Under the pieces are notes generated by a model. It was not told the DNA's origin. It did not search any database and saw only the letters and a list, made by a program, of their open reading frames with translations. A DNA stretch of 64,000 nt from Candidatus Thorarchaeota archaeon (GTDB lineage: Archaea > Asgardarchaeota > Thorarchaeia > Thorarchaeales > Thorarchaeaceae): positions 12,157-76,156 of the forward strand of contig JAGSHN010000023.1 of the NCBI GenBank assembly GCA_029855935.1. Direction: 5' to 3'. This document shows positions 18,630 through 52,439 of the stretch, piece by piece (positions within the stretch are counted from its first letter, which is position 1; every line of letters starts with the position of its first letter). Both the position numbers and the translations under genes were made by a program.

Positions 18630-19389
18630 GACTGGATCTTGTGCGGCTGATTACTTCGACTATCCGGCATTCTGGGATTTAAGTCGTTCTGGTGCGGCAT
18701 CATCTTCAATGCAGACGCCTCTTGCACCAGTGCTGGGTACCTCCGCAATGCCACACTTGAGAATCGTGATGCATAGCCAGTAGTCTTGGAGCCCGCTGAC
18801 TATATGACATATCAATCACGACTCTCCCGGGGGCGTTGTTGTCGGACGTCTACCCAGTGCGTAAGGTAGCGGCCTCGGCCCGGCAGACGACACAGGTCTC
18901 GCCCTGTTCTTTCAACTTGTGGCGAGCTGCCCATCTTCTTTGCGGCCATTCGTCTTGACGAGTGAGGACCACTTCTTGAACACTATGATTGGAGCCCTCC
19001 TGACTCAGCTAGTCGGTGCGCTATGGCTCAGTCTACTTGGAGACTCATTGTCCCGCGATGCGACTATTTTCACAGTGGCTAGTGGGCCTGTTCTGCCTGC
19101 CAGATTGGCCTACATAGCAAACTGTGCCTCAAAGATGAGTGAACGGTACGAACTATCGGCATACATCTAAGCCAGGGATAGCAGAAACTAATGTGATGTA
19201 GGCACTCCCTCTTCACCTTTGCGCTGAACTGAGAACCCTGCCAGAAACAGACGGTTCAGTGTTCGATTCGAACATTGCGGTGTCGTGCTGCTACGAGTTT
19301 CGCGAGAGATTGCAAAAACGGTAGTGTGACTATTGCCCTTGAGCTCTCTTAGAACATCTTCTTATCCGAATTCTGTTTCCTGCAGAGCT

Positions 19390-28669: not shown

Positions 28670-29149
28670 CTAGCCAATCAACGTGAATCCGTCAAAGATA
28701 CTGCAGCCGCAAGGTACTATCCGCAAAGGGAAACTAGGCGTTCCCAGAATCCTCTTTACCAGAGACAAGTTATTCGCAACAAAATCGCATATGTTCTGTG
28801 GGAGAACCAATATGTGACGGTAGTTGGGATTTCTCACGCCCATGCAGTCCAGCAACCCACCAAGAAATCCTTCAGTTTCCTTGAACTTGCTATCAAGACT
28901 GCGGATGGCTTCAGAAAAGGTTGATTCCTCAGCAATGTTCTTGAGTTCCACCAGGAATGCGGTGCATTTGTCATCCTCGAACATAACGTAGACTACATCG
29001 CAATGGGCCAAGTGCATTCTCCCAAGTTCCGCGTACTTCTCGAAGTTGAGAACCAGAAAGGGCAGACCGCCCTTGAGGATGATTTTGCAGTCATTCTCTT
29101 CATACTCGGCTTCCATTCTCGGCCCATTCGTCGTCCCCGGCACGTTCAT
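28670..29149 (-). CDS. Small protein with a PD-(D/E)xK-like nuclease motif, the putative partner of the upstream ATPase.
   Basis: HCDVVYVMFEDDKCTAFLVELKN contains D-hydrophobic-strand ... E-L-K. It is 159 aa, and its start overlaps the stop of the 29100-30833 ATPase. Confidence 0.4.
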   Translation of the reverse strand: MNVPGTTNGPRMEAEYEENDCKIILKGGLPFLVLNFEKYAELGRMHLAHCDVVYVMFEDDKCTAFLVELKNIAEESTFSEAIRSLDSKFKETEGFLGGLLDCMGVRNPNYRHILVLPQNICDFVANNLSLVKRILGTPSFPLRIVPCGCSIFDGFTLIG

Positions 29150-30833
29150 CGTCTCCTAAGCCTAGCGCCCACTCCAGCAGAATATCTATGACATCCGTCA
29201 GACTGGGAATGTGCTTTGTTAGCTCATCTGCGGGAACTTCTGATACTTCAACTCCTTCCTTCTCAGGCTTGTAGTAGTAGAACCGGATGTCAAGATCCCC
29301 TGCTCGCGCAGCGTATTCTGACAGAAGCTCAAGAGGACCGCCCTCAACAGGCACCCTCTGCATCTCCAGGAGCCTCTCTATCAGCTCACGGATCTTCTCG
29401 CTGCTGGGTCGGTGTATCTTTATGTATGCTAGGATAAGAACGATGAGGTCACTGTGGGTACTGAAAACCACTTGGTGCTCGTACTTGCTTGCAAGCGCCG
29501 CCAGAGTCAACCCCATCAGCAATTGAGCGGCATAGTGTAGTTGAGCCTCGGGCTCCTCTATGATGATCCTTGATCTTGGACGCGTCGAGAGAACTGGCAA
29601 CAGAATTCCCGCAACTTCTCCGGCCAGGGCCGAGGCCGAGTTCATTGGCACGGCGCACGCACCCGTGGAATAGAATAGACCCTTCGCCCTTTCGTAGGTA
29701 AGTCTGCCTTGAAGAACCGGAAGAAATAGCTCAATTGCTTCCTTGTCGTAGGAACCGTCGGCAATCTTGGATCTGCCCAGGCTCAGCCACGATATGTAGG
29801 AATGCAGAACGACATCTGACTCATACAGTGTGCTGTAGCCACGTCTGTCTCTTCGAATCGGTTCTTGCGAGAGGAGTTCTAGCTGGTTGATGACGAGGCT
29901 TCGTCCGAATGGAATGAAACGTACTTCCTCTAGACCGTATGACTCAGCATACGCAGCCCTGAGCGGTTGACATATTGACTCGTCTACGAATTCCAGAAGC
30001 ACGTCATCCAGCCACAATTGGATACGGTGGGGAAGGAAGGAACCTAGGACATAGCCAGGCCTGCTGGCCCTCTGGAGAATCTGACTGACTGTGGCCTCCG
30101 GACTCTTTGCCGACGAAGCAATCTTCTTCAGTTCGTCCAGCACGTTCTTCGAGAAGACCCTCTCAACCGCCCTACTGCTGGCCCTCATCGAGAATCTGAG
30201 CTCCAAAGCAATTGCAACTACTCCTTCGGGTTTCAGGTCAAATGAAACGTTCGCTTGACAGATCGTATTCCTCCTCAGGTCACCAAATTTCTCAGCATAA
30301 CTACGTGGCTCCGTAGAACTCTCAGCAATCAAGTCAAGGAACTCCGGCATTGATACCGAACTATCCAGTTTCGAGTCATCTCTCACCAAGACGATATCCC
30401 GATAGAAGTCTAGATTGGGCCGCAGCAAACTATCGACAGGAATGACGCCAGAGGCCTCTATGGTAAAGTTGAGAGTGCCATCTTCGGAGCGCCAGCGAAC
30501 GTTTTCCGCACCAGTCTGTTCTCTGAAAACCTCAGCGAGATTCGGTACTTGACTCTCTAAGCCTTCAAGGCCCAACGCGTACAACGCTACCAGCGCGTAC
30601 AAAGCCCTCAGCGAGTTTCGCAGATTCAGAGGCGGATAGTCCACATCATACGTACTTAGTAGGTTACGGAACTCAAACTCGCGTGCGTGCTCATCGAGCA
30701 TTAGAGTCGAAGCATACAAGGCTCTGAGGGTATACGACTTCCCCGTATTAGGCGGCCCGAACACGACAGTTATGTCGCCAATCTCTATATCCGCCGATCG
30801 TATCGGGCCCAAGTTCTCTATGTGGAATCCCAC
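29100..30833 (-). CDS. AAA_21/ABC-type (OLD/RecF-like) ATPase.
   Basis: Walker A is VFGPPNTGKSY. The C-terminal RIIIEEPEAQLHYAAQ...VVFSTHS carries the Walker B/D-loop and H-loop typical of AAA_21 ATPases of defence systems. Confidence 0.8.
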   Translation of the reverse strand: MGFHIENLGPIRSADIEIGDITVVFGPPNTGKSYTLRALYASTLMLDEHAREFEFRNLLSTYDVDYPPLNLRNSLRALYALVALYALGLEGLESQVPNLAEVFREQTGAENVRWRSEDGTLNFTIEASGVIPVDSLLRPNLDFYRDIVLVRDDSKLDSSVSMPEFLDLIAESSTEPRSYAEKFGDLRRNTICQANVSFDLKPEGVVAIALELRFSMRASSRAVERVFSKNVLDELKKIASSAKSPEATVSQILQRASRPGYVLGSFLPHRIQLWLDDVLLEFVDESICQPLRAAYAESYGLEEVRFIPFGRSLVINQLELLSQEPIRRDRRGYSTLYESDVVLHSYISWLSLGRSKIADGSYDKEAIELFLPVLQGRLTYERAKGLFYSTGACAVPMNSASALAGEVAGILLPVLSTRPRSRIIIEEPEAQLHYAAQLLMGLTLAALASKYEHQVVFSTHSDLIVLILAYIKIHRPSSEKIRELIERLLEMQRVPVEGGPLELLSEYAARAGDLDIRFYYYKPEKEGVEVSEVPADELTKHIPSLTDVIDILLEWALGLGDDERAGDDEWAENGSRV

Positions 30834-32858: not shown

Positions 32859-34778
32859 GTGAAACTCAAATCAGTCCACGTGAAGCACTTTCGATGCATC
32901 CGGGACCAGACCCTGAATTGCGAGGACCTCACAATACTCGTTGGTCCGAACGGCTCTGGAAAGTCTTCCTTTCTCAGGGCCCTCGACCTGTTCTATTCCA
33001 CTTCGCCAAGTTATGCACAGGATGACTTCTACGGCCGAGACACGGACACACCCATAACGATCACGGTCACATTCTCGGAGCTGGACGATGACGAGCTAGA
33101 GCTATACAAGAGATACGTGCACAACAACGAGCTATCCATAACTCGAAAACTGGAATGGCCTCCCAGGAGAGGCTCGGCGAAATACCACGGGCTTCACAAA
33201 TGCAATCCCGACTTTGATGGATTTCGTAGGGCAAGTGGGTCGGATCTGCGCCGCGAGTACAATGCGCTACGTCAGGGCAAATATAGAGAACTCCCTCCGT
33301 ACTCCAACAAGGATGCTGCTGAAGGAGCGCTCAAGGATTGGGAGGATAGGAATCCGGACAGATGTGAGATTAGGGAGGACGATGGCCAGTTCTTCGGATA
33401 TACCGCAGTAGGCAAGTGGGTCCTGGAGAAAGGAACACGATTCTTTCTTGTGCCGGCCGTGAGGGACGCAGCCCTTGACGCTAGAGAAGGCAAAGGAAGT
33501 CCGTTCTCGGAGATAATGGACATAGTCGTGAGAAGTACTCTGAAAGATGCCCCCAGCTGGCAAGATCTTCAGAATCTCGTAAGAGAAGAGTATCGCAAGG
33601 TAATTGGTCCCATCCGGGAGGAGAAGCTGGAACAGATAAAATCCGAACTGATGGAGATTCTGCAGACATACGTGCCAAGCGGGAGCGTAGAGATAGACTG
33701 GGACGTTGAAACAGATCCGGAGATTCCAGCACCAAGAGCTACCGTAAGGCTTGCAGAAGACGAGTTCTATTCTCCTGCGGAGCTTTGCGGTCACGGCCTA
33801 CAGAGGGCACTGACCCTGGCGATGCTCCAGCTCCTTGCCAGAATTCGTACTCGGCTCGGATCAGACGAAACGCCGAACGAACCAACCTTCATCATCGCAA
33901 TTGAAGAGCCTGAGGCATATCAGCATCCCAACAGGCAGCGCCATCTGGCAAGAGTCCTCGTCGATCTTGCAGAAAATGGGCTTCCTGGTGCTGCTGAGAG
34001 AATCCAGATTATCTGTACAACACACTCGCCTCTATTCGTAGATATGGCAAACTGCCACAGAGTTCGCAAGCTGAGAAAGATCAAGACACAGACCAACGCA
34101 CCTCCCGAAACAGTGGTTGTTTCGACCAATCTTGACACTCTGGCCCGTGAGTTAGAGCAGATTGACGGCAAGGCTCAGGGAACGTATAGTGAGAAATCAG
34201 TATTGTCGCGGCTGAGAGCAGTGATGACCCCTCAATTGAACGAGGGATTCTTTGCTGATGTAGTGGTCCTCGTGGAGGGAGAAACTGATCGGGCGGCTAT
34301 CCTTGCAGTGGCAAGGATGCTGGGTCACGATCTTGAGGCATTGGGCATATCTGTGCTCCCGTGCTCAGGGAAAGGGAGCCTAGTCGGTCCTGCCGTTGTC
34401 TTCAGGAGTCTCGACATACCAATATACCTTGTCTGGGATGCCGACACGCAGTCCGGGGGCTCCGGACAGGACGATCCTCACAACAGAAAGCTCTTCCGCC
34501 TGATGACTGGCACAGCCAATGGCTCCCCGGGCACAATTGCTTCGACGTATGCCTGTCTGCAAACCAACCTTGAGGAAACCATTAGGACGGAGATTGGTGG
34601 TGACGTATTCGATCCCATAGTGGAGCGGTGGCGCAAGGAGCACGGAATGAAGAGAAACGCCGCAGTCAAGCGAGCTGCTGCAATTGAGGAGATTCTCAAT
34701 CAGGCCGCACAACAGGGAAGAAGATGCCAGACAATCGAGGAGATTGTCACACAGATAGTCAAGCTTGTTGAACAATAG
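32859..34778 (+). CDS. OLD-family ATP-dependent endonuclease (AAA_21 ATPase + Toprim).
   Basis: GTG start. Walker A is VGPNGSGKSSFLRALD. IIAIEEPEAYQHP is the Walker B/D-loop, followed by TTHSP. The C-terminal Toprim is DVVVLVEGETDRAAILAVAR ... YLVWDADTQSGG (E + DxD). Confidence 0.85.
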   Translation: MKLKSVHVKHFRCIRDQTLNCEDLTILVGPNGSGKSSFLRALDLFYSTSPSYAQDDFYGRDTDTPITITVTFSELDDDELELYKRYVHNNELSITRKLEWPPRRGSAKYHGLHKCNPDFDGFRRASGSDLRREYNALRQGKYRELPPYSNKDAAEGALKDWEDRNPDRCEIREDDGQFFGYTAVGKWVLEKGTRFFLVPAVRDAALDAREGKGSPFSEIMDIVVRSTLKDAPSWQDLQNLVREEYRKVIGPIREEKLEQIKSELMEILQTYVPSGSVEIDWDVETDPEIPAPRATVRLAEDEFYSPAELCGHGLQRALTLAMLQLLARIRTRLGSDETPNEPTFIIAIEEPEAYQHPNRQRHLARVLVDLAENGLPGAAERIQIICTTHSPLFVDMANCHRVRKLRKIKTQTNAPPETVVVSTNLDTLARELEQIDGKAQGTYSEKSVLSRLRAVMTPQLNEGFFADVVVLVEGETDRAAILAVARMLGHDLEALGISVLPCSGKGSLVGPAVVFRSLDIPIYLVWDADTQSGGSGQDDPHNRKLFRLMTGTANGSPGTIASTYACLQTNLEETIRTEIGGDVFDPIVERWRKEHGMKRNAAVKRAAAIEEILNQAAQQGRRCQTIEEIVTQIVKLVEQ

Positions 34779-34976: not shown

Positions 34977-36065
34977 ATGCCCCTTGGGCACACAATCGTT
35001 GAGGGGTCATCTCTGAGGGTACTCCACACGTCGGATCTCCATCTCAGTGCGGGCAACCCGCGCACACTCGAAGCCCTCGAACACATTCTAGATGTGGCAA
35101 GGCAAGAGAACGCAGATATCGTCACCATTGCTGGTGATATGTTTGACTCTGCCAGAGATGCAAACGAACTGCGGCCACAGCTAAGAGATCTGCTATCCGA
35201 AAACGGCTTTGAGATCCTTGTCCTCCCCGGGAACCACGACGCCACGGCCTTTACCCAGAATACATTCTACGGCAATGATGTGTTCCCGCTGATCGATAAG
35301 CCTGTTACTGTCAGAGAATATGAAGACCTCCTCATCGCGGGCGTGCCATTCCGCGAGAGGCTGGACGATGATGTAGCACTCCGAATTCGAGAAGTTTCGG
35401 ACTTCACAGGCACGAAGATCCTCTTGCTGCACTGCACCCTCGATATCGGCCTCGGGAGCGGTGGCTTCGGCGAAGAAGAGGCGATTCGCTACATGCCTGT
35501 GTCTTCAGCCAAGCTGGCCGGGCTCGGTTTCGACTACATCCTGGCTGGCCATTTTCACTCTTCGCTGCACGAACAGAAGCTTGCAAGCGGAGGACTGTTC
35601 GTCTACCCGGGGTCACCAGTCTCTCTGACAAGGAAGGAGCGAGGGCGGCGATCCGCCTATCTCATTGACACTGAGAGCAAGAAGACGCAGGCCATAGAGC
35701 TCTCTACGTTCTACTGTGATGAGCTCGAGGTCACAATCTCGCCGGGTACAGAGAAGGCGTGGGTCGAACAAATCGAACAATGGGCCAAGCATCACAAAGG
35801 AAAGAACTGTGACGTCAGGGTCATCGCGAAGGGGTTCACCGAGATGCCAGAGGCTGAGCTGAAACAACAGATTGAGGCTGCAGCCGGGGGAATTCACGTT
35901 GACTTTCGCGTCCGTGGCATTGAGAACATCCTCCGATACCCCATATATCAGAGATTCAAGCAGCGACTTCTTAATGATGATGGGATCGACGACAAGGAGA
36001 GGGTAGATATGATGATGCTCACGGTCGTGTCTCGACTGGCGGAAGAGGGGGAGCTTGACCTATGA
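34977..36065 (+). CDS. Calcineurin-like metallophosphoesterase, SbcD/Mre11-like nuclease.
   Basis: The phosphoesterase motifs are present in order: LHTSDLHL, AGDMFD, GNHD, LLLHCTL, GHFH. 362 aa. Confidence 0.85.
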   Translation: MPLGHTIVEGSSLRVLHTSDLHLSAGNPRTLEALEHILDVARQENADIVTIAGDMFDSARDANELRPQLRDLLSENGFEILVLPGNHDATAFTQNTFYGNDVFPLIDKPVTVREYEDLLIAGVPFRERLDDDVALRIREVSDFTGTKILLLHCTLDIGLGSGGFGEEEAIRYMPVSSAKLAGLGFDYILAGHFHSSLHEQKLASGGLFVYPGSPVSLTRKERGRRSAYLIDTESKKTQAIELSTFYCDELEVTISPGTEKAWVEQIEQWAKHHKGKNCDVRVIAKGFTEMPEAELKQQIEAAAGGIHVDFRVRGIENILRYPIYQRFKQRLLNDDGIDDKERVDMMMLTVVSRLAEEGELDL

Positions 36066-38065
36066 GGTTGAAAGAGCTCAACATCATCCGATATGGACCC
36101 GTGAGGGACCGCAGGCTCACGTTTGAGGAGAGCGTCAATCTCATCTACGGCCCGAACGAGTCCGGCAAGACACTCTCAATAGATGCCCTGATCAAGCTCC
36201 TCCTTGGACGGGAGAGAATCCAGAGATGGGACATCGACCGTGTCGAGTCAAAGCCCAACGGGTACGCAATCATAGAGATTGGGGGCGAAGAAATAGAGCT
36301 CACCGGCTCCAAGTCATTGATTGACGTAATCGAGATGGATGACACCGAACTTGCAGTAGACGACCTGAGAAACGTGTTCATCATTCGAGACTCGGACCTT
36401 CGAACTCACGATTCCCCCAGGTATTTCGAAACGCTTGTGGATCGGGTATCGGGAGCACGACTTGCGGAGATCGAGAAGATAATAGAAGAACTCGAGAGAG
36501 AGGGACGCATAACACCGAAAGGTCAACTCACGGATCGTCAAGACACGGGAAAGCTCGCAACTCGTGTCCGAGATGCCCGCAAACTGTTGAACGCGATTGA
36601 GGAGTTTTTCCAAAGACCGGAAACGCATGAATATGAGGAATTGGAATGGGAGTTTGTCAGGAAAAAGACCCGACTAGAAATCTTGAAACAACACTGGGAG
36701 CGACTTGAGCAAGCCAAAGAGCTGTACGAAGCTGTTGAGATTCGAAACAGTATCAGTGTCATTGAGGGACTCTTGAAGGAACGACAGCGATACGACAGGA
36801 GCCAAATCAGCAATCTAAGGACAAAGGCAGAACAGGCTAGGGCTGAGTGTGAGTTCATTGAGGCGAGCAAAGAAAAGATTGAATTCTTGTCCAGAACGGT
36901 ACTCGTCTTTGCATTTCTGTCGATGATTGCCCTGGTTCTGGCAGTGCTTGTGAATCCGTTGGCTCTAGCAGGTCTAGTTGTGTTCGCAGTCCTGACAACG
37001 CTTCACGTGGGAAGAATTCTGTCAATCAAGGACGACGAAGCCAAGTTTAGGTCCAAGGCTCACACTCTTCTGATGGAGGCTAGGGCTGTTGGTATCAAAT
37101 GCGATGACGTGGATGCACTATGCGAGAAACTCCGAAGCGTCTTGGACCGCGCGGACGAGGTCCATAACAAACTGATAGGACATTGGTCGGTCTTGGCAGA
37201 CAAGTTCAACTTGCCAATGGATGCAAACCCCGAGGACCATCTCCCTTCGATAAGAAACGATATCGAAATGAGACTCATGGCACACAAAGGTATTGATGCT
37301 GACAACTTCGATTCAGAAGAGTACGAGAGAGTTAGGCAAGAAATGCGCGAACTCGGCGAAGAGATTGAGGGATATGAGAAGAAACTTGAGTACTACCGGG
37401 ATAAGCTTCAGGAATTTGAGCGCACAACGAACCATGTACTAAGAGCTGATTTTTCCGGCAGTGATGGGGGCTTGGAAATAGGCTCTCTTGAAGCACTGAG
37501 GGCAGCTCGGTCGAAACTAGAAGAGTTCATAGATCGGGTCGAGACCCGTGCCGATACCGCTAGAGAGGCAATCAAGATACTCAAGGAGGTGCGCAATGAA
37601 GAGAGAAGCTCAATAGGCAATCTCTTCAAACCCGATGGACCTGCAACCCGCACCTTCGCAAGAATCACGAAGGGGGCGTATTCGGAGGTGCTGGTGAACA
37701 GGGACGGGTCAGCAATCCACGTCCGTCGGGCCGGAGGAGAGCTCATTCCCCTTGAGAAGCTGAGCAGGGGAGCAACCGACCAGCTCTATCTGTCAGTACG
37801 GATTACGCTTGCGAAAGAGATTCTGGGAGAAGAGCCGGGGTTCTTCGTCATGGATGATCCCTTCTTGGCCTCAGATATGGGTAGGCTACGTGAGCAGGTA
37901 AGCATATTGAAGGAGCTGGCCCAAGAGGGATGGCAGATCATCTACTTCACCTCCAAGGAGGAAGTGGTGACCGCGTTCAGGGAGATGGTGGGCGTTAAAG
38001 CGAAGTCATTGAATACGCTTCAGGGCCTGATACCGCCAGAGGAAGTTTCCCAAGCGGAGCCGTGA
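36062..38065 (+). CDS. SbcC/Rad50/SMC-like ATPase with a central hydrophobic hairpin.
   Basis: The start overlaps the upstream stop by 4 nt (ATGA). Walker A is YGPNESGKT. A long charged coiled-coil follows. The C-terminal LSRGATDQLYLSVRITLA is signature-motif-like, and FFVMDDPF is Walker B. Residues around 275-320 (LVFAFLSMIALVLAVLVNPLALAGLVVFAVLTTLHV) form two predicted TM helices where a Rad50 zinc hook would normally sit. Confidence 0.8.
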   Translation: MRLKELNIIRYGPVRDRRLTFEESVNLIYGPNESGKTLSIDALIKLLLGRERIQRWDIDRVESKPNGYAIIEIGGEEIELTGSKSLIDVIEMDDTELAVDDLRNVFIIRDSDLRTHDSPRYFETLVDRVSGARLAEIEKIIEELEREGRITPKGQLTDRQDTGKLATRVRDARKLLNAIEEFFQRPETHEYEELEWEFVRKKTRLEILKQHWERLEQAKELYEAVEIRNSISVIEGLLKERQRYDRSQISNLRTKAEQARAECEFIEASKEKIEFLSRTVLVFAFLSMIALVLAVLVNPLALAGLVVFAVLTTLHVGRILSIKDDEAKFRSKAHTLLMEARAVGIKCDDVDALCEKLRSVLDRADEVHNKLIGHWSVLADKFNLPMDANPEDHLPSIRNDIEMRLMAHKGIDADNFDSEEYERVRQEMRELGEEIEGYEKKLEYYRDKLQEFERTTNHVLRADFSGSDGGLEIGSLEALRAARSKLEEFIDRVETRADTAREAIKILKEVRNEERSSIGNLFKPDGPATRTFARITKGAYSEVLVNRDGSAIHVRRAGGELIPLEKLSRGATDQLYLSVRITLAKEILGEEPGFFVMDDPFLASDMGRLREQVSILKELAQEGWQIIYFTSKEEVVTAFREMVGVKAKSLNTLQGLIPPEEVSQAEP

Positions 38066-38249: not shown

Positions 38250-39008
38250 CTACTCGTATATCTCCGAGATACTCGCAATCTCTCTCATCAGAAGCGTGAT
38301 CTCGTCTAATAGCTCTTCACCCTCGTCGGGGTCCTGGGTCCGTATGAGCTTGTCCTCATACATCCGGATAAGTCGCACCAGCTTCCTGTATCGCGGTAGA
38401 GGGAACTGTTCGGGGATCTCACCGAAGATGTAGCCCCGTTGTGGGGACAGATGTTCCTCGGCCGCTATATTTGCAATTTGAGTGATGGGAACCCAGATCT
38501 CCGCCAGAGTCCCGTCGTCATCTTCACTCGCCTTAAAGTAGGCCCCAATCTCGACGTCGTACTCGCCAAGGGTGCCTCGCAGTATGCTATCTGCGCGGAC
38601 GTATCTCCATCCTCTTGCCCGTTTCTTCTTTCGGAGGGCAACAACTATCTCAACCTCACCGTCCTCACGGTTTTCGCGAATGTACTCGCGGTCATCCTCA
38701 CTGAGGCGGCAGGTCGGCGGTATTCCCCCAAAGTCGGTGTGAGAATGAAACTCGCCGACTATGAAGTCCCAAGACAGAAACGCCAAGACCTCCTCAATAC
38801 GGGCATATCTGCGGAAATTCGGCTCCACTGATGTGTATCGTCGCTCGGAGGACTGGAGAGCCACAACTGAGTTGACCACAACTTTGCCCGCCGAACCGAA
38901 GATGTCGCCCATCAATACACCTGTACATTCGCGCTTGTAGACCTCAATCGCATACCCGAGCATCTGTGCAAAGGCAGGTGCCCGGACGAAGACTGTTTCA
39001 ATCTCCAA
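38250..39008 (-). CDS. JAB/MPN (JAMM) domain metalloprotease-like protein with a C-terminal extension.
   Basis: EVYKRECTGVLMG followed by GEFHSHTDFGGIPPTCRLSEDD matches the E...HxH...S..D JAMM pattern with slightly longer spacing. 252 aa. Confidence 0.55.
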   Translation of the reverse strand: MEIETVFVRAPAFAQMLGYAIEVYKRECTGVLMGDIFGSAGKVVVNSVVALQSSERRYTSVEPNFRRYARIEEVLAFLSWDFIVGEFHSHTDFGGIPPTCRLSEDDREYIRENREDGEVEIVVALRKKKRARGWRYVRADSILRGTLGEYDVEIGAYFKASEDDDGTLAEIWVPITQIANIAAEEHLSPQRGYIFGEIPEQFPLPRYRKLVRLIRMYEDKLIRTQDPDEGEELLDEITLLMREIASISEIYE

Positions 39009-39531: not shown

Positions 39532-40059
39532 TCACAAGAATTTTCTCACGAAGTACCTGAAAGATTCACTTCTACGTTGTGCAAGCGAGGGGTCGAATCT
39601 CTCGATGATTCTATTCATAAATACCGAACGCGGTATCGACTGCGGTATTATGATATTGAACCACTGTTTTGTGACACGTGGCGGAATCGCGAGCCTCCTG
39701 ACACCAGCAATCTGCCGAAGAATTTCTCTCTCAATTCCCGCGACATACCACGCCTCTATCTCGGGTATGACAACTACTATGCGCTGCTCGTCCCCAATCC
39801 CATATCGTCCGGCTATTTGGTTTCTCAGTGCCGTCACACAGGGATAGCGATCCAGATCCCGAACAAGGACATACTCAGTACTCTTCCGTTCCAAGGTATG
39901 AATGAATTTCCGAATTTTCCTTTTCTCCATCTGAGCGTACTTGACGATTTGAACACGATCATAGTGTTTCTCAAGACGTGAACAAAGGATTCTCCTGAAG
40001 AAGCGTTCGTCGTCATCCCCTTCGACGAAGACATAGAAAGACGACATTTCTTTCGACAC
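39532..40059 (-). CDS. Small Toprim-like (DUF4276/RloB-like) protein, partner of the upstream AAA_21 ATPase.
   Basis: The N-terminus FYVFVEGDDDERFFRRIL resembles the hhhVEGxTE start of DUF4276/RloB-type Toprim proteins. Its start is 2 nt after the ATPase stop. 175 aa. Confidence 0.5.
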   Translation of the reverse strand: MSKEMSSFYVFVEGDDDERFFRRILCSRLEKHYDRVQIVKYAQMEKRKIRKFIHTLERKSTEYVLVRDLDRYPCVTALRNQIAGRYGIGDEQRIVVVIPEIEAWYVAGIEREILRQIAGVRRLAIPPRVTKQWFNIIIPQSIPRSVFMNRIIERFDPSLAQRRSESFRYFVRKFL

Positions 40060-40061
40060 CG

Positions 40062-41360
40062 CTACTGCAGAATGCCCTGCACGAATAGGTCATCCACACC
40101 GAGATCGTTCTCCAGAAACGCCATTACCTCCTCGTCATTTCTTGGACGCGTGACCTGCGAATATCCATCCTCGTCCCGCGTAACAAGGAGAAGGTTATCA
40201 ATACCAGCGTGCTTGACCACTTCGGGGTTGTGCGTTGTAATTATCACCTGTTTGTTCATTCGGCTCGAGACCTCTTTCATCATATTCACAATCTTCGAGA
40301 TGAGTAGAGGGTGAATGTTTCGCTCGGGCTCCTCTATGATAACGAGAGGGTTCTTTTCGAAATACAATGCGATTACCAACGTTGTGACATTCACCGTACC
40401 ATCTGAGATCAGAAAGGCTGGCAGGAACCGTTTCTGTGAATAGATCTCTCTGATGCTGGCGAGAAGCGATTTGTCCGGAAGTCTCTCTACCGTGAAGTCC
40501 TCTACGAGTGGCAGGACATCCTTCACTAATGACGAGATCAGGTCCCGGTCTCGCTTATTATCCAAGATGCGCTTCAGAATCAGGGGCAGATTGCTACCGT
40601 CTGGCTCAAGCTCGGTCTTGCCAGTGACGGGAGTTGCACGTTTCATAAGTCGCGGATCAAAATCGTAGATAGAGATGTTACGCAGATAGTGTGCCAAGCT
40701 CGAATAGAACGGTGAAAGAAGGACTGGATCTTCAATGGAGAGTCTTCGTGGGCGCGGACGGGCAGCATATCTCATATCTCGCGCTAGAGACAGGTAGAAG
40801 AAGCGTTCTATGCGTGTGTCCGAGAGGGAATCAGACATTTCCATCGTCACTCTGCGACCATCATTGATAGTAGTGATAGTGCCTTTGCGAACTTCTCCAC
40901 GGAGCGCATCACCACCGTTCGGCCGGCGAGTCCCGTATTCACACACTGCCGTGAGTTTGTCCGACACTCCCGAGTAGTCCAGTTTGCGTTTGTAGAACCT
41001 GATTGAGAGTTCGTAATCGTACCGACTGACGGAGAGATAGGCATCTCGAGATATCCGCAAGATGTCTCTTGCTTCGAGTGAGAGTTGGATGGACAGGTCA
41101 CGCAAAGAACCTATGGCAAGATTGCGTAAGTAGGCCACTCCACCTTGCATCGAAATAGCGTTCTCCAACCCCATCGTGGTGATATCCTTGAGGAACCGGA
41201 ACAGGGCGATAAGATTGGATTTTCCTGAGGCGTTCGGTCCGACTATCACGTTGAAGTCGCCCAACTCAATCTCCGTTTCATTGAAGGTCCTGAAATTGCT
41301 CACCCTTATTCTTCGGATCCTCGTTGTGTCCTTCGGTCGCATAGGTTGGGAACCTCCCAA
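40062..41360 (-). CDS. AAA_21/ABC-type ATPase.
   Basis: Walker A is VGPNASGKSNLIALF. The C-terminus LVIIEEPERNIHPLLISKIV...VIITTHNPEVV carries Walker B, Q/H-loop features. Confidence 0.8.
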   Translation of the reverse strand: MGGSQPMRPKDTTRIRRIRVSNFRTFNETEIELGDFNVIVGPNASGKSNLIALFRFLKDITTMGLENAISMQGGVAYLRNLAIGSLRDLSIQLSLEARDILRISRDAYLSVSRYDYELSIRFYKRKLDYSGVSDKLTAVCEYGTRRPNGGDALRGEVRKGTITTINDGRRVTMEMSDSLSDTRIERFFYLSLARDMRYAARPRPRRLSIEDPVLLSPFYSSLAHYLRNISIYDFDPRLMKRATPVTGKTELEPDGSNLPLILKRILDNKRDRDLISSLVKDVLPLVEDFTVERLPDKSLLASIREIYSQKRFLPAFLISDGTVNVTTLVIALYFEKNPLVIIEEPERNIHPLLISKIVNMMKEVSSRMNKQVIITTHNPEVVKHAGIDNLLLVTRDEDGYSQVTRPRNDEEVMAFLENDLGVDDLFVQGILQ

Positions 41361-41811
41361 CTTGTTTCGGAGAATTTGGCGCGTGTTGAGGTACTATCTC
41401 GGGAACGTATAAGGATTTGGAATGAACTGCTGGCTGAACTGCGGAGCTGGTTCGCCAGTCCTATGGATGCTTCGAACTGGCCTGTGCTTGCGCCAGCGAA
41501 TCGGGGAAACGCCCTCCAAGACAACGCCCACCCTGTAGCGTGCTGTCGTTTCTCAGTTTCTGAGAGTTGGCTCCTTCGAATTCTTGTCCTCTACTACCTC
41601 CAGCAATGTGATGTGCTACTGTCTATGGTGTCGACTCCGCTGGCATGCGCCAACACTCGCGGGAGAGGGCTTGTCCGGCGGAAACAGAGGATGCCCCAGG
41701 GGATTGTCCTGTTGGAACAGCAGCTGCGCTGGGCTCAGCTCTCAAATGATTCTAGAGTCGGCAGCCGATAGGCATATGCTGCCCGTTGGTGGAAGATAGC
41801 ACTCGAGGAGC

Positions 41812-42825
41812 TTGAAGTATACAGCCGAAGACGAGGAGAGGAATCGCACCTACTATGTCGCGTTGAACAAATCGCGCAATGATCTATTCCACCCGTACAA
41901 CAACAAGGGCGGAGGCACACTGGAGTGGGACAACGATTTCAGGGACAGGGTTCGCGAGGCCAAGGCCTTGCGGAGGACCAATGGATTGATTGAAGAGTTG
42001 GATTCGCCACCCAAGGCCCGGAAGTCGCTACCCACAAGGTCATTGAGGGTGATATACCGTCGGGACCCTGTCTTGGAGTCGATCGCGAGCAGATTCCTGC
42101 CCCGAGTCATCGATGCCACTCATATCTACGGTCTTCTGTTGTGTCCGCGCCGACACCAGTACGGTACACTGATGGGCGCAGCCGGGATGAAGTGCGACGA
42201 GGTTGAACGCAGCGAGTTCTCGCCGGCCTTCGGCTCTGTCCTACACAGTATGATCGCAGAGTTTGACTATGCCACGGGCTCCACTGAGAGCGCTCTCACC
42301 GTGCTCCATCAGGCTGAGTTCCTCACCGGCCCCGACAAGAAGAGGCTCCAGAATGCGATCACCTCGTACTCGGAGTTCACAGAAGAGATAGGTCTGAGGT
42401 CATCAGAGGGAGATCGAGTGTTGTCAGAGAGGGAGATCTACGGAACCATAGATGTGGACGGGCAAGTCATCGAGCTCCGCGGGGTCATCGACATAGCAGT
42501 TGTCCGATCCGACGGTAAGATCGACGTCTACGACGTCAAGACCAACTATCTGCCCCCTAGTGGCACTTCTGAAGAGAGGCTCAAGCGTGAGTTCCTGCGG
42601 AAACACCACGAACGTCAGCTCCTGACATACAAGTCAATGCTCGAACAACAGGGACACACTGTTGAAGGTGTCTACGTTGTGGCTGTATCAAAGAAGAGTG
42701 CAACCCAAGTCAAGTGGAACCTAGTTCAAGTTGACGATGCAGACTGGTCATTGCAAGAACTTTGTGAGATGCTGCCGATAACGGTCGAAGAAGAGGGACT
42801 CAGAAAGACTGAGAACAAGTACTGA
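41812..42825 (+). CDS. RecB-family PD-(D/E)xK nuclease-like protein.
   Basis: GVIDIAVVRSDGKIDVYDVKTNY contains D...D-x-K. The downstream QLLTYKSML resembles the RecB-family QxxxY motif. The N-terminal 200 aa are unassigned. Confidence 0.5.
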   Translation: MKYTAEDEERNRTYYVALNKSRNDLFHPYNNKGGGTLEWDNDFRDRVREAKALRRTNGLIEELDSPPKARKSLPTRSLRVIYRRDPVLESIASRFLPRVIDATHIYGLLLCPRRHQYGTLMGAAGMKCDEVERSEFSPAFGSVLHSMIAEFDYATGSTESALTVLHQAEFLTGPDKKRLQNAITSYSEFTEEIGLRSSEGDRVLSEREIYGTIDVDGQVIELRGVIDIAVVRSDGKIDVYDVKTNYLPPSGTSEERLKREFLRKHHERQLLTYKSMLEQQGHTVEGVYVVAVSKKSATQVKWNLVQVDDADWSLQELCEMLPITVEEEGLRKTENKY

Positions 42826-45911: not shown

Positions 45912-47690
45912 ATGAGCGAGTCACTAAACTCACGTTTCCTGCGCATCCAGCACATCCTAGAACGGGTTCACGAAGGCGACTACGTCCTTCCGGAGTTCCA
46001 GAGGAGCTTCGTATGGTCGAACTCCGACATCAAGGATCTTCTCGTTTCATGTCTGAACGGGTATTTCATTGGGACGTTCCTCCTTCTTAGGGGTGATGCG
46101 GCAAAGAGCTTTAAGACACGGTATTTCGAGGGAGTTCCCGAGGCCAATCCGCAAATCCCACGAGAGCCAGATGACAGGACTGTCGATCGAATTGTCTTGG
46201 ACGGGCAACAAAGGATAACTGCGGCATACTATGCCCTCTATGCGCCACCTGGTATCACACCCAAAGGGGCGTCATATCCCAGACGCTATCTCCTGAGGAT
46301 TGAGAACTGTCACGTCGGCGACATCGACTGGGAGGATCTCATAGAAGACTGGTCCGAGAACGAGAGCAGTCGAAAAGTCCCTCACTCGTCAGGTGCAGCT
46401 AGACTTAGAGAACTCATTCAGAAACATGATTTTGTCAACCTTCTGAACGATTCAGAGTTCCGCAAATACCTCTTCGAGAATCATCTTCTGCCGTTCGCGG
46501 TTCTGAAATCAGACTCAGATTTCTCAAGGTGGTTGGACGATTACGCGGACTACCTTGAGGAGAAGGGCATAGAAAAGGCTCAGGTGAGAGAACGGAAACA
46601 AGCCCTCCGAGAAAGACTGAAAAACGTGCTGAATTTCCAAGTTGCGGTTCTAGAGTTGGAGGAGAGGGACCTCGTCAAAGTCGTCGACCTCTTTGAGCGA
46701 ATCAACCGAACAGGTGTTGCTCTCTCTGTGTTTGCACTAGCTACCGCAGTCTACATGAAGGGAGGAGTAAACCTCCGCAGACTGTGGAGGGAGTTCTATG
46801 CAGCATCTCCTACAATTCAGCAGTTCTGTCAAGAGGATGATGAAACATATCCCAAATACGTTCTCCAAGTGATGGCTCTTCTCCAAGGCAAGGAGGTCAA
46901 GAAGAAAGTCCTGATTGACTCCAGACAGTTGAGTGTTACATCTGACCGATGGTCACAAGCCACGGAACTGCTCGAAAAGGCGCTCGACCGTGCAACAAGC
47001 ACGAGAAACGGTTATGGAGCAATCAAGTCAAATCTCCTACCTTATCGGTCGGCAATTGTCACTCTCGCTGCTCTTCTGGCCAAGTGCGGAACTGCTAGTG
47101 ACTTTGACAAGCTGGACGCTTGGTACTGGAGTTCCGTCTTCACAGCAAGGTATGCTGGGGCCAGCGAAACAGCGATCAAGCAAGACTATGACCAAGTATG
47201 TCGATGGCTGAAGGATGGTACCCAAGAACCAAGTGTTGTCACTGAAGCGGCGAATCGTGTTTCGAGTCACAAGCTCGAGAACATCAGAACTGGCGGTACC
47301 TACAAAGCCATACTTTGCCTCATCTCATTGGCTGGTGCAAAGGACTTCCTAACCGGACAGAGTCCCGAGCTAGGCTTGCTCAATGACCATCATATCTTTC
47401 CGAAATCATTGTATCGAGATAGACGCTCAGTTGATTCAATACTCAACCGGACACTCATTACCGACACGACAAATAGAGATATCTCGAATAAACGCCCGTC
47501 CGAGTATGTTCGGGAGATCATAAAGGCTCTTGGCGGGGAGGAGGACGATGCGAGAGATATGCTGAAGAGTCATCTGATAGACGATGAATGTTTCGAGGCA
47601 ATGAAACAAGATGACTATTCGCGCTTTATGGCCCGCCGGGCTGAGCTGATTCGTAGTGAGATGATTCGTCGAATCCGGTACGGGTCTTGA
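45912..47690 (+). CDS. GmrSD-family type IV (modification-dependent) restriction endonuclease, DUF262 + DUF1524.
   Basis: The N-terminal DUF262/ParB-like motifs are YVLPEFQRSFVW and DGQQRITA. The C-terminal DUF1524 His-Me finger is LNDHHIFPKS...NRTLITDTTNRDISNK. Confidence 0.85.
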   Translation: MSESLNSRFLRIQHILERVHEGDYVLPEFQRSFVWSNSDIKDLLVSCLNGYFIGTFLLLRGDAAKSFKTRYFEGVPEANPQIPREPDDRTVDRIVLDGQQRITAAYYALYAPPGITPKGASYPRRYLLRIENCHVGDIDWEDLIEDWSENESSRKVPHSSGAARLRELIQKHDFVNLLNDSEFRKYLFENHLLPFAVLKSDSDFSRWLDDYADYLEEKGIEKAQVRERKQALRERLKNVLNFQVAVLELEERDLVKVVDLFERINRTGVALSVFALATAVYMKGGVNLRRLWREFYAASPTIQQFCQEDDETYPKYVLQVMALLQGKEVKKKVLIDSRQLSVTSDRWSQATELLEKALDRATSTRNGYGAIKSNLLPYRSAIVTLAALLAKCGTASDFDKLDAWYWSSVFTARYAGASETAIKQDYDQVCRWLKDGTQEPSVVTEAANRVSSHKLENIRTGGTYKAILCLISLAGAKDFLTGQSPELGLLNDHHIFPKSLYRDRRSVDSILNRTLITDTTNRDISNKRPSEYVREIIKALGGEEDDARDMLKSHLIDDECFEAMKQDDYSRFMARRAELIRSEMIRRIRYGS

Positions 47691-49506: not shown

Positions 49507-50195
49507 CTCGACGAATGGACTTGTCAGGTCAGTCCTCCAATTCCGGAGCGATTCTCGAGCTTCAATCGTGAGGCGAAACGCCTGCGCGGCGAGTACTAGT
49601 CCAGCCAGGGAATTTATGCATTACTTGATTCAATTCATCCCTCGGGTCAAGTCTCTGGAATCTCGAGTCTCCAGTCGACGGGACACTGAATGGTGTGAGA
49701 TCTGGCCGGCTTGAGAGGGACGATGAGGAACTTGAGAGAGCACAGGGGCTCTGTTCAAGACTTGGCCACTGGGTCAAGAAGCTCGAGCAGGACCACTCAC
49801 AAGACATCGCCCCTTCTCCCGTTTCGAGACACCTCAGTACCTTGCCACAGCGAGCCTTCAACAAGAAACAAAAGAACAGGAGACAAATCAACAACTCGGA
49901 TAGGTACGGGCTCAATACGAGAGTGCGTGAGTACCAGCGTCATCATTGAAGGGTGTAGCGGCTATTGCGGGAAAGTGAAACGGGGGTCCTGATGGACAAG
50001 CATGGCCCTCGGGCCGATGCCAGCGGATCAGAAGGACACGATGCTAGGCGACAGCTCCTCCGTTCCTCCGGACACAGCCAGGTGCCACGACGACGCTCCC
50101 CAACCGTGAAGAGCGCCGTGGGATGGGAGCCAGAGGAATACTCCGATTCTTCCGCACCTGGGGCGCGTCAAATTGCCACCCGGTCCCCTATACTC

Positions 50196-52439
50196 GTGAC
50201 AGCCGTCTCGAGGTCCTCGGTGACGCCTCTGTTCGTGCTTCTGCTCCTGCTTGGAGGCACGCTCAGACTTCCCGTCTCGTCGGTTCCCCTATCCCTGTCT
50301 CATCCATCATCCGTCCCGTCCCCGCCCTTTCCTGTCCCGTCGTCAGATGTGAGCGGCCACTATCTTGATGGACCTGTGCAGGCGGTACGTGACAGGACGC
50401 GCCTTGCAGTTCCTGTCACCACGTCTCTGAGGTTGTACCCCTCATCACAGACTCAACTCGACATTGCAGAGCCGCTCGTCTGGTCCACACTCTTGGGCAC
50501 TCCCGAACACGAGTGGTGCGGTGACATTGCACTATTCTCCAACGGGTCAATAGTGGTATCGGGATCGACTATGGGCGTTGACTTTCCGGACCCTGAGGCA
50601 CCAGACATATATCGGGACCCAATTGGCTTCGTTGTGTCGTTCTCGCGCCCGTGCGAGCCACCGATGCGCTCGTGGCTCATCGGCAACGAAGATTCGTACA
50701 GCTATAATGACTGCATGGCCGTCGACGAGCACGGACGGATCTTCGTCGCTGGGTACGTCTGGGGTCAGAATTTTCCGCGGGTGAATGCCAACGAGACATG
50801 GCTGCCGGGCACAAATGACAACGTATACGTCGTGGTCTACTCGCCCGATGGACAGATGTTATTCTCGACGCTCATTGGTGGTTCGGGCTACGACTACCCC
50901 TACTCAATCGTGCTGGGTCCTGATGGCATTCTGTACGTGGTGGGTAGCACCAGCTCAGTGGACTTCCCCGTGACGAGTACTCACTGGGGCTATCGCGCTG
51001 GCCCCTCTGACGTCTTTGTCATGGCCATCGACTGTCTGAACGACCGACTGGTCTTCTCACGATGTCTTGGTGGTGAGGGGCGCGACTCCGGCAAGGCGGT
51101 GACGATGGACGCAGATGGGGCAATATGGGTGACAGGCTGGACCGATTCCGAGTTCTTCGAGAGCACGCTCGACGGATGGGGGTCGTGCGGCGGCACAGAC
51201 GTCTTCGTTGCCCGGCTGGACAGATCAGGAGTGCTTGATGGCCTTCTCGTGCTGGGCGGTGGCGGAGAGGAGAACGCCCTCGGCATCGCAGTCACCGATG
51301 ACAATAGTGTGATCATTGCCGGATGGAGCAACTCGACAGACCTGCCTGCCCCGGTTGATGATGCCGAAGAGGAGCCGCCCATCAATCAGGGCGGCCACGA
51401 TGTACTCTTACTCAGGATGGGCATGTCAGAAGAGGATGCTGAAACCACCCTCGACAGGGCTGTGGAGGTAAGGCAGGTGGTCCTGATTGGTGGTTCTGAT
51501 GACGACTATGCGTCAGCCATTGCTCTTGGCCAGGACGGGAGTGTGTACATTGCTGGCTGGTCCGACTCTGAGGACTTTCCAGTGGCCGGGACCTTCACCC
51601 TTCCTCATACACATTCGAGTCACAGCGACTGTCTGGTGATGAAGATGTCTCCGGACCTGAGTCGGGTGCTCTACGCGTCCTGTCTTGGAGGTCCCTACCC
51701 CGATGAGGCGTACTCGCTGGTGGTGAACGGCACCGGGACGGTCTTTGTTGCAGGCACTGGACTTGATGGGATGCCGTTACGCGGTGCCTTTGACAACACG
51801 ACTGGTTTCCGGGATGATGTCGTAGTGTTTGCACTTCTTGATCACGCAGATGGTGACGCGGACGACCTCATCGATCACTTCGAGTACTTGTACGGTACCA
51901 GCCCTTCTCTGAACGACACGGACGGCGATGGTCTGACCGACAGATACGAGTTGGAGATGGGACTCGACCCACTAAATCCAGACTGTGACAATGACGGCCT
52001 TGACGACGGGACGGAGGTTCGTGCAGGACTGAATCCACTGGATGGACGCGATGCGGGACTGGACCTCGACGGCGACGGACTGACCACGGCAGAGGAGATT
52101 GCGCTTGGTCTGAATCCCCTGAACTGGGACACAGACGGTGACGGGTTTGGCGATGGCTGGGAGGTGGCACGCGGATACGACCCGCGCGATCGGAACGTGC
52201 CGCTCGCAGAGGCGATTGAGGGATGGGCCGAATCGGCGGTGGCAATGAGTGGTGGACCCATTGTGCTGGCGGTCCTGTCGACCGTGTTGCCACTGGTCAT
52301 TGCGGTGGTGGTACTGCGTCGCAGAGAGATGATGCAACGAAGGGCACTGGAGAAGGCGAAAAAGAGAGAACGAGAGGTCTTGCACGAACTCGTATCCGGA
52401 GAGATAGACGATGAAGGCAGCACGCAGCCATGGGACTGA
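50196..52439 (+). CDS. Giant cell-surface protein with SBBP beta-propeller repeats, TSP3-like Ca-binding repeats and a C-terminal TM anchor plus basic/charged tail.
   Basis: The ORF is open from 49965, but the upstream 77 codons are R/S-rich and non-protein-like. The GTG at 50196 gives MTAVSRSSVTPLFVLLLLLGGTL, a signal peptide. SBBP-like units include LFSTLIGGSGYDYPYSIVLGPDGILYVVGSTSSVDFP. TSP3 repeats span 51.84-52.19 kb. The C-terminus is IVLAVLSTVLPLVIAVVVLRRRE followed by a charged tail. Confidence 0.75.
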   Translation: MTAVSRSSVTPLFVLLLLLGGTLRLPVSSVPLSLSHPSSVPSPPFPVPSSDVSGHYLDGPVQAVRDRTRLAVPVTTSLRLYPSSQTQLDIAEPLVWSTLLGTPEHEWCGDIALFSNGSIVVSGSTMGVDFPDPEAPDIYRDPIGFVVSFSRPCEPPMRSWLIGNEDSYSYNDCMAVDEHGRIFVAGYVWGQNFPRVNANETWLPGTNDNVYVVVYSPDGQMLFSTLIGGSGYDYPYSIVLGPDGILYVVGSTSSVDFPVTSTHWGYRAGPSDVFVMAIDCLNDRLVFSRCLGGEGRDSGKAVTMDADGAIWVTGWTDSEFFESTLDGWGSCGGTDVFVARLDRSGVLDGLLVLGGGGEENALGIAVTDDNSVIIAGWSNSTDLPAPVDDAEEEPPINQGGHDVLLLRMGMSEEDAETTLDRAVEVRQVVLIGGSDDDYASAIALGQDGSVYIAGWSDSEDFPVAGTFTLPHTHSSHSDCLVMKMSPDLSRVLYASCLGGPYPDEAYSLVVNGTGTVFVAGTGLDGMPLRGAFDNTTGFRDDVVVFALLDHADGDADDLIDHFEYLYGTSPSLNDTDGDGLTDRYELEMGLDPLNPDCDNDGLDDGTEVRAGLNPLDGRDAGLDLDGDGLTTAEEIALGLNPLNWDTDGDGFGDGWEVARGYDPRDRNVPLAEAIEGWAESAVAMSGGPIVLAVLSTVLPLVIAVVVLRRREMMQRRALEKAKKREREVLHELVSGEIDDEGSTQPWD
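51840..52190 (+). repeat. TSP3-like DxDxDG repeat array inside the 50196-52439 gene.
   Basis: DTDGDGLTDRYE, DCDNDGLDDGTE, DLDGDGLTTAEE and DTDGDGFGDGWE. Confidence 0.6.

Follow-up and report, generated by a model that had tools for sequence, protein, structure and literature searches.

The window analysed here is a stretch of 64,000 nt from a Candidatus Thorarchaeota archaeon (assembly GCA_029855935.1, contig JAGSHN010000023.1, positions 12,157 to 76,156 of the forward strand). On its minus strand there are two adjacent genes, the first for an ATPase and the second for a small stand-alone protein that is predicted to be a nuclease of the Toprim type (Table 1). The two open reading frames (ORFs) lie head-to-tail and in different frames, with 2 nt between the stop codon of the ATPase and a GTG. 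An earlier inspection of the letters of this DNA (the sequence-only reading) had reported an ATPase of 432 amino acids, which is the ORF from TTG 41360, and two nucleotides after its stop an ORF of 175 amino acids, which is that from GTG 40059; this is the arrangement present. The motifs that it quoted are all in the translations: 'VGPNASGKSN', the Walker A motif; VIIEEPERNIHP, the Walker B motif and D-loop; and FYVFVEGDDDERFF. Both ORFs are far beyond what would be expected by chance, the ATPase having a match to the Pfam family AAA_21 at E 4.7e-29 and the small ORF having 75 homologues at E 1e-19 to 1e-106.

For the ATPase the most likely start is ATG 41342, because GGAGG is present 10 nt upstream of this codon and the same start is used in public gene calls. 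In the case of the small gene, the public gene call is ATG 40047, giving a protein of 171 amino acids. Its start may be either this codon or GTG 40059, and the commonest layout in the family, which is a stop, 2 nt and a start, often with a GGAG-like motif within the 3' end of the ATPase gene, fits the GTG. Residues are numbered here from ATG 40047 for the small protein (171 amino acids) and from ATG 41342 for the ATPase (426 amino acids). The layout of the junction would imply that the two genes are co-transcribed, and their translation is probably coupled. Between the ATPase gene and the divergent gene 5' of it is an intergenic region in which a TTATA-like element lies some 60-70 nt upstream from ATG 41342, and this region is presumed to contain the promoter of the two-gene operon.

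A scan of one genome per species, from 185,579 species, with two peptide patterns gave 468 relatives, from which 80 loci were kept, all 80 being in metagenome-assembled genomes (MAGs). An ATPase homologue is immediately upstream, on the same strand, in 77 of the 80 loci found via the small protein, and the gap between the two is in most cases -7 to +18 nt. The three loci outside this count are one with just 125 nt of upstream sequence, one in which an insertion of about 1.4 kb interrupts the ATPase gene (L084), and one in which the small gene stands behind an unrelated gene of 436 amino acids (L087), the last of these being the sole real exception to the pairing. In a Dehalococcoidia contig (L003) the ATPase gene is seemingly fragmented, where the near-identical L004 is intact, and this could be either decay or an assembly error. 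In each of seven contexts obtained by exact protein look-up, two of them started from the ATPase, the gene directly upstream of the small one is again that of the ATPase, and the other neighbours are unrelated. Clustering of all neighbouring ORFs revealed no third conserved gene, the two further large clusters being antisense shadow ORFs inside the two genes themselves. Across 75 independent loci the pairwise identities of the ATPases and of the Toprim proteins are correlated (r 0.84, a value reached in 0 of 2000 Mantel permutations), so that the two have been inherited together.

The family is large and scattered. A search of 1.84 billion cluster representatives returned 1402 members at E <=1e-3, with 727 of these at E <=1e-30, and the best 150 of the 1402 are all stand-alone proteins of 166-228 amino acids. 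About a third of the 80 loci are archaeal (Promethearchaeota, Hodarchaeota, methanogens, ANME, Archaeoglobaceae and Thermococci), and the remainder are spread over many bacterial phyla. The closest relative, from a Promethearchaeota MAG, has 62% identity; the next, at 42%, is from a Dehalococcoidia bacterium. Outside the Promethearchaeota MAGs no relative is nearer than this bacterial protein, which points to horizontal movement of the cassette. There was no match to the small protein by tblastn against GenBank phages or PLSDB plasmids, and in IMG/VR the family is on 2 of 2.9 million contigs, both of which carry the complete pair.

In addition to AAA_21, the ATPase matches the Pfam families AAA_15 (8.5e-20) and SMC_N (4e-14). 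Its best match in PADLOC is HEC-01A (PDLC04178, E 4.3e-50, 168.9 bits), in which residues 7-406 are aligned with positions 1-356 of the 399 in the profile, and eight more HEC-01A models match at 7e-46 to 8e-35. These are followed by PDC-M07A (2e-33), mad3 (3e-32), AriA and AbiLi, the match to AbiLi being partial (1.4e-27, profile 46-259 of 326). The NCBIfam MAD3 model is aligned over its full length (4e-40), with 138 bits against an equivalog cut-off of 420. The Walker A motif (G35-N37-G40-K41-S42), Q-loop (Q66), signature (S313-D314-G315), Walker B motif (E337-E338) and H-loop (H371) are all present and are invariant or nearly so in the 75 independent loci, with K41 and E338 found in 75/75 and H371 in 74/75. 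The AlphaFold (AF2) monomer model, made from an alignment of 43 homologues, has a mean predicted local distance difference test score (pLDDT) of 84.9 and forms an ABC head in which about residues 83-169 make up a beta-rich insert and which has neither a long coiled coil nor long helical blades or arms. The top Foldseek matches in the PDB are PtuA, of Septu and retron effectors, the Rad50 and SMC heads, Thermus (Ts) OLD and GajA, with E 1e-13 to 4e-11, TM scores of 0.4-0.5 and a probability of 1.00; AriA is absent from the top 50. At the sequence level, the matches given by phmmer against the PDB are to OLD, PtuA and GajA and cover short stretches only, at the P-loop and Walker B. All of the motifs, and the fold of the head, are those of an ABC ATPase with an SMC/Rad50/RecF-like head. 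Because these five motifs are invariant or near-invariant in the 75 loci, the protein is, to judge from its sequence, an active ABC-type ATPase rather than a classical AAA+ protein. The ATPase of HEC-01 has likewise been called ABC-type, and not classical AAA+, by the authors who described it (10.1101/2024.01.29.577857).

Profile matches to the small protein are much weaker. Three families only are found in Pfam, all of them of the Toprim type and all below their cut-offs: DUF3226 (1.5e-3), DUF4276 (4.6e-3) and OLD-like_TOPRIM (6.7e-3). For DUF4276 (PF14103), residues 12-110 are aligned with positions 1-112 of 192 at 17.7 bits, against a gathering threshold of 30.2, so that the protein does not belong to DUF4276 as Pfam defines it. 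The PADLOC matches are HEC-01B (PDLC04194, 3.2e-8), restricted to the N-terminal 100 residues or so (profile 5-104 of 204), mad4 (3e-6) and AriB (1.6e-3). The relatives give a similar picture. Among 43 of them, Pfam matches are to DUF4276 in 11 (best 2.4e-6), OLD-like_TOPRIM in 11, DUF3226 in 7, DUF4435 in 2 and RloB in 1, with no family member reaching a Pfam gathering score in these scans, while in PADLOC HEC-01B is matched by 35/43 (best 5e-11), mad4 by 17/43 and AriB by 6/43. One relative carries the UniRef name DUF4276 family protein. The sequence-only reading had called the small protein a DUF4276/RloB-type Toprim partner of the ATPase. The description as a DUF4276-like Toprim protein stands, with the score below threshold as given above; the comparison with RloB does not, since the Pfam check of the small protein returned no match to RloB and none to DUF4435.

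The predicted structure of the small protein is very confident (pLDDT 96.6, predicted template modelling score 0.90). In it a beta-alpha-beta-alpha-beta-alpha-beta core (residues 3-93) precedes a helical domain, with the Toprim core placed at about residues 1-105 and the C-terminal helical domain at about 107-170. The core has the characters of the Toprim superfamily, these being a three-layer alpha/beta arrangement, a four-stranded parallel sheet, a glutamate after strand 1 and a DxD after strand 3. At E <=0.011, Foldseek matches it to the catalytic regions of OLD proteins alone (6nk8, 6p74 and 6njv), and then to Topo VI-A, DnaG primase and RNase M5. The features of the OLD-type catalytic region are also present, namely a Toprim domain joined to a helical domain, with metal-B ligands and a catalytic lysine. 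On the strength of the predicted structure and the Foldseek matches, the small protein is modelled as a free-standing version of the OLD catalytic region, made up of the Toprim and helical domains. The profiles, weak and consistent, agree with the confident model and the OLD matches, and the Toprim assignment has therefore survived the check, by profile and by structure, on which the sequence-only reading had staked it.

The predicted active site comprises E9, D13, D64-x-D66, E96-x-E98 and K127. The 'hhhVEGxxE/D' motif noticed previously is the conserved Toprim glutamate with the acidic residue four positions later. In the alignment of 43 sequences E9, D13, Y59, D64, I97, E98, W100, Y101, G104 and S162 are invariant. 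Across the 75 independent loci D13, D64, E96, E98 and K127 are each found in 75/75 and E9 in 74/75, the other row having a gap; at position 66, 38 loci have D and 37 have N. In Bp OLD, metal A is bound by E400, D455 and D457 and metal B by E404, T506 and E508, and K562 is catalytic (PMC6755086). The acidic pattern of the small protein appears, from its motifs and their spacing, to mirror these metal-A and metal-B ligands, and K562 may have its counterpart in K127, an invariant residue of the helical domain. AriB of the PARIS system has E26, D30, D88, E90 and E122 (PMC11464382), spaced by 4/58/2/32 residues; E9, D13, D64, D66 and E98 here are spaced by 4/51/2/32. The five acidic Toprim residues of PARIS thus all have a counterpart, as judged by motif and spacing and not by structural superposition.

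Of the named systems, HEC-01 ('Hma-embedded candidate 01' in PADLOC, from Payne et al.) is an ABC ATPase with a TOPRIM protein that has the OLD metal site (10.1101/2024.01.29.577857). The likenesses to it are the order of the two genes, with the ABC ATPase (A) before a small TOPRIM protein (B) carrying an OLD-type metal site, their adjacency on the same strand, at a distance of 2 nt here and with the same arrangement in the 77 of 80 loci, and the matches themselves, HEC-01A being the best and nearly full-length match to the ATPase and HEC-01B the best match to the small protein. The beta-sheet Insert 1 of HEC-01A also appears to be present in the ATPase model. A difference is that the pair is not embedded here within an Hma system. 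The ATPase and the order of the genes agree with HEC-01, and the B component does so in part. That the HEC-01B match is weak and limited to the N-terminal half (3e-8) would suggest a divergent subfamily that is poorly captured by the 2023 models; current tools would most probably label the pair HEC-01.

The next likeness is to MADS, the methylation-associated defence system, with the ATPase spanning the full MAD3 model and the small protein, like 17 of its 43 relatives, matching mad4 in PADLOC. MAD4 has been described as a DUF4276 Toprim protein (PMC12065111). Deletion of mad3 or mad4 reduces MADS defence (Maestri et al.; 10.1101/2023.03.30.534895), and the apparent lethality of a mad5 deletion is relieved by an extra deletion of mad2 or mad3 (10.1101/2023.03.30.534895). 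This relief is read here as a hint that the target of the MAD3 module is the DNA of the cell itself. The pair is not MADS in the strict sense, as the ATPase falls short of the MAD3 cut-off by the margin given above and the pair stands alone. When 26 ORFs of the window were compared with PADLOC, neither mad6 nor mad7 was among the 25 best families listed for each protein, and mad8 had weak, partial matches only, from unrelated ATPases; all three are mandatory in MADS.

OLD proteins (class 2 Bp OLD, 6NK8, and Ts OLD, 6P74) and GajA are single polypeptides, whereas here a stop codon and a change of frame separate the ATPase and Toprim ORFs, so that the pair is not OLD proper; the sequence-level similarity to OLD and GajA is marginal. 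Gabija differs also in its partner, there being no UvrD/GajB-type helicase with the pair. RloB (PF13707) and AbiL can be set aside, with no RloB match to the small protein, a match at 2e-3 in 1/43 relatives, and no AbiLii among the PADLOC matches. PH0156 of Pyrococcus horikoshii (PDB 2P62) is also among the closest known systems. On sequence, the nearest named relatives of the pair are HEC-01 and then MAD3-MAD4, rather than PARIS or RloB. In the previous description of the locus as a PARIS/Rlo-like abortive-infection module, the pairing of an ATPase with a Toprim protein holds, the closest relatives are these others, and the term abortive infection would be an analogy only.

Both folds, the intact and conserved catalytic motifs, the near-obligate adjacency, the co-inheritance, the setting in a defence island (described below) and the sporadic distribution over archaea and bacteria are what an account of function can be built on. 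It is likely that the pair is a two-gene operon for an ABC ATPase and a separate Toprim nuclease, a split OLD of the HEC-01 class, and that it serves as an ATP-controlled antiviral effector. By analogy with PARIS, OLD, Gabija and MADS, the two proteins would be made together and form a complex, the ATPase would be the sensor, and the locus would have an antiviral role. The ATPase would dimerize around ATP, as other ABC/SMC-head ATPases do, and act as sensor or regulator in detecting a virus-derived cue or aberrant nucleic acid. It would then license the Toprim subunit for two-metal cleavage of nucleic acid, with metal A held at E9 and D64/D66, metal B at D13 and E96/E98, and K127 of the helical domain pointing at the scissile phosphate. 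Cleavage of viral or cellular nucleic acid would halt the infection. As the substrate, DNA may be slightly more probable than tRNA, because it is the catalytic region of the DNA-cleaving OLD that gives the best structural match, and because of the relief of mad5 lethality by deletion of mad3.

Several observations weigh against this interpretation. A sequence profile search of all PDB chains returned no Toprim protein. The full-length OLD nuclease that is also encoded in the window (Table 1) provides a second comparison, used solely as a consistency check: hhalign of the small-protein family against an alignment of the catalytic region of this OLD gave a probability of 13.5% and E 0.002, in a register that places E9, D13, D64 and D66 on the invariant E34, D38, D88 and D90 of the OLD family, and the profile of the small-protein family against the single sequence of the OLD gave nothing (probability 0.2%). 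The assignment as Toprim is therefore mainly one from predicted structure and motifs, the HEC-01B match being partial (N-terminal 100 residues or so, 3e-8) and every Pfam match to a Toprim-type family being below its cut-off. Many of the homologous pairs lie amid housekeeping genes, not in defence islands. The direct antiviral evidence for the HEC-01/MAD3-MAD4 class is sparse and mixed: with the HEC-01 representative that was tried first, there was protection from none of the phages tested (10.1101/2024.01.29.577857), and in E. coli B one HEC-01 representative of cold-seep metagenomic origin conferred protection from one or more of T4, T5 and T7 (PMC12881386).

The proteins of 170-180 amino acids make up a compact, separate family (about 1400 clusters at 50% identity). 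It is tentatively conceivable that they, each with a dedicated ATPase, are a 'split OLD' class apart, common among the archaea of anaerobic sediments, Asgard lineages included, for which the trigger and the target could differ from those of PARIS (tRNA) and of OLD and Gabija. Were this so, the class would deserve a name and a mechanism of its own, outside HEC-01.

A mechanism strictly of the PARIS type is unlikely. In this, an oligomer of the ATPase would hold the Toprim protein inactive until a viral anti-restriction protein binds the ATPase, and the freed Toprim protein would then dimerize and cleave host tRNA, such that translation stops and the infection is aborted. The five acidic residues, at nearly the same spacing, are shared with AriB, as described above. 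However, AriB (AriA/AriB; PDB 8UX9 and 8V46) is a DUF4435 protein of about 300 amino acids that dimerizes and cleaves tRNA-Lys, and the small protein, at 171 amino acids, has no counterpart of most of this extra sequence. Nor does it have the DUF4435/AriB signature: it has no DUF4435 match of its own, the 2 matches among its 43 relatives are at 4.5e-3 or weaker, and the AriB model, at 1.6e-3, covers 39 residues (10-48 only). AriA has helical insertions, IS1 and IS2, that form a propeller-shaped hexamer; the ATPase monomer model has the beta-rich insert and no long helical blades, and AriA is outside its top 50 Foldseek matches. For the small protein, the best structural match is to the DNA-cleaving OLD catalytic region and not to AriB.

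Less probable by some way is an addiction module resembling a toxin-antitoxin (TA) system, in which a Toprim toxin is neutralized by the ATPase and a selfish cassette persists regardless of viruses. The description of the AAA_21 domain in Pfam is 'putative AbiEii toxin, type IV TA system', and pairs of an ABC ATPase with a TOPRIM protein do also occur as bona fide TA modules (PMC11464382, the PARIS paper); the cassette is, moreover, scattered among unrelated neighbourhoods without a third gene, and some loci have TA genes near the pair. The conservation of all catalytic motifs of the ATPase would nevertheless be more in keeping with a working sensor or motor than with a passive antitoxin. Locus L003 has an intact small gene and an ATPase gene that seems decayed, a state that would be intolerable for an unneutralized toxin, unless this is an assembly error. 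TA behaviour and defence are, in any case, not mutually exclusive. That the pair is a housekeeping factor for the processing or repair of nucleic acid, such as a maturase like RNase M5 or a RecF/Rad50-like ATPase that repairs with a nuclease of its own, and is in the island by coincidence, is very improbable. Several homologous pairs do lie between housekeeping genes such as gatD/E, gyrA, truA and def/fmt, and RNase M5 and the heads of Rad50/SMC are related in structure. However, the family is sporadic (the 468 relatives found with the two peptide patterns in 185,579 species, scattered over many archaeal and bacterial phyla), has a nearest relative beyond the Promethearchaeota MAGs, 42% identical, in Dehalococcoidia, indicating horizontal transfer, has no fixed genomic position and is flanked here by defence genes on both sides, and the only relatives that have been characterized act in defence.

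The antiviral interpretation preferred here, with the pair as a split OLD, agrees with the surroundings of the two genes. They are inside a defence island at about 15.5 to 47.7 kb of the window, as proposed in the sequence-only reading and as seen in Pfam and PADLOC matches across the ORFs of the window, with defence genes on both sides of the pair. The island contains a HepT-MNT fusion, a PDC-S01 protein, a methyltransferase, HD and Panacea proteins, an AAA_15 ATPase, the OLD nuclease, a Metallophos phosphoesterase with an AAA_27 ATPase, a JAB protein, the pair itself, a PD-(D/E)XK protein and a GmrSD-like protein (Table 1). The G+C content is 0.45-0.50 at about 21-29 kb, against 0.55-0.60 outside the island. 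A search for flanking repeats or mobile-element ends at about 38-43 kb gave short, chance-level matches only, and tRNA and Rfam scans of the window returned nothing.

Neither the JAB gene, 523 nt downstream of the Toprim gene and with no obvious partner gene, nor the PD-(D/E)XK gene is conserved with the pair in other loci. The OLD nuclease is 5 kb from the pair, so that fused and split versions of one design are in the same island; many public homologues of its catalytic region are Toprim-only proteins of 145-280 amino acids, some of them on short contigs, so that they may be gene fragments and not additional split forms. A first ATPase-nuclease pair had been placed 10 kb away, and is probably the 577-residue AAA_15 ATPase and the 159-residue ORF that overlaps it. 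The ATPase is real, although the profiles match its two ends only, with a long unmatched middle; the 159-residue ORF has no match to a nuclease or any other family in Pfam, PADLOC or NCBIfam and is unrelated to the Toprim family. The 667-residue AAA_27 ATPase has a hydrophobic stretch of about 40 residues (VLVFAFLSMIALVLAVLVNPLALAGLVVFAVLTTLHV) in its middle, where SbcC/Rad50 would carry the coiled coil, and this would make the ATPase and its phosphoesterase a putative membrane-anchored SbcCD-like pair. The HD and Panacea genes may be a TA-like or defence pair. Flanking the island are three large proteins with beta-propeller / FG-GAP / PQQ-like and bacterial TSP3 repeats, which are probably secreted or surface-located.

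Table 1. Features of the ATPase-Toprim locus, followed by other features of the window (coordinates in the window)
Feature	Coordinates	Strand	Size or start	Matches and remarks
ABC-type (AAA_15/AAA_21) ATPase gene	40062..41342	minus	426 aa from ATG 41342	longest ORF 40062..41360, 432 aa from TTG 41360
Small stand-alone Toprim gene (predicted), DUF4276-like / HEC-01B-like	39532..40059	minus	175 aa from GTG 40059	39532..40047, 171 aa from ATG 40047
Gene junction	40048..40064	minus		ATPase stop TAG 40064-40062, CG, GTG 40059; alternative ATG 40047 12 nt on
Intergenic region, ATPase gene to divergent PD-(D/E)XK gene	41343..41811	none		presumed operon promoter region, from sequence
Large repeat protein	6551..9187			
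Nucleotidyltransferase-HepT fusion	15584..16447	minus		Polbeta + HepT-like
PDC-S01 protein	19333..20661	plus		AAA_14 + DUF4143; 1.6e-91
HD-domain protein overlapping downstream SocA/Panacea protein	25662..27507	minus		HD + HD_assoc_2, weak dGTPase match; PADLOC DarG C-terminal region 1.2e-10 (Panacea protein)
ORF overlapping AAA_15 ATPase by 50 nt	28670..29149	minus	159 aa	
AAA_15 ATPase	29100..30833	minus	577 aa	PDC-M56A 2.5e-16; PD-T4-4_A 7.5e-16
Single-polypeptide full-length OLD nuclease	32859..34778	plus		Old 1.3e-54; AAA_15 2e-40; OLD-like_TOPRIM 1.2e-16
Metallophos phosphoesterase	34977..36065	plus	362 aa	4-nt overlap with the following ATPase gene
AAA_27/AAA_23/SMC-type ATPase	36062..38065	plus	667 aa	PADLOC: weak LmuB, mad3 and mad8 matches only
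JAB/MPN-domain protein	38250..39008	minus	252 aa	Prok-JAB 1.2e-5; PADLOC JAB 1e-4
PD-(D/E)XK / Cas4-like nuclease	41812..42825	plus (opposite to ATPase)	337 aa	PDDEXK_1 7e-13
GmrSD-like protein	45912..47690	plus		GmrSD_N 8e-26; PDC-M55C 1e-30; HEC-05 3e-29
Large repeat protein	49965..52439			
Large repeat protein	52503..54809			

The combination of an ABC ATPase with a Toprim protein is among the most widely reused designs in prokaryotic immunity, being found in OLD, Gabija, PARIS, retron effectors, AbiL and MADS, and few of its versions are mechanistically understood. The pair described here opens no new category and would be a divergent module of the HEC-01 / MAD3-MAD4 class. It is, however, a clean and minimal split example, for which the structural model is very confident, the predicted two-metal site is fully conserved, and 75 paired sequences and about 1400 clusters are available, and as such the locus would be useful in studies of the control that an ABC ATPase has over a nuclease separate from it. 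The presence of the pair in the defence island of an Asgard-related archaeon enlarges the catalogue of archaeal immunity.

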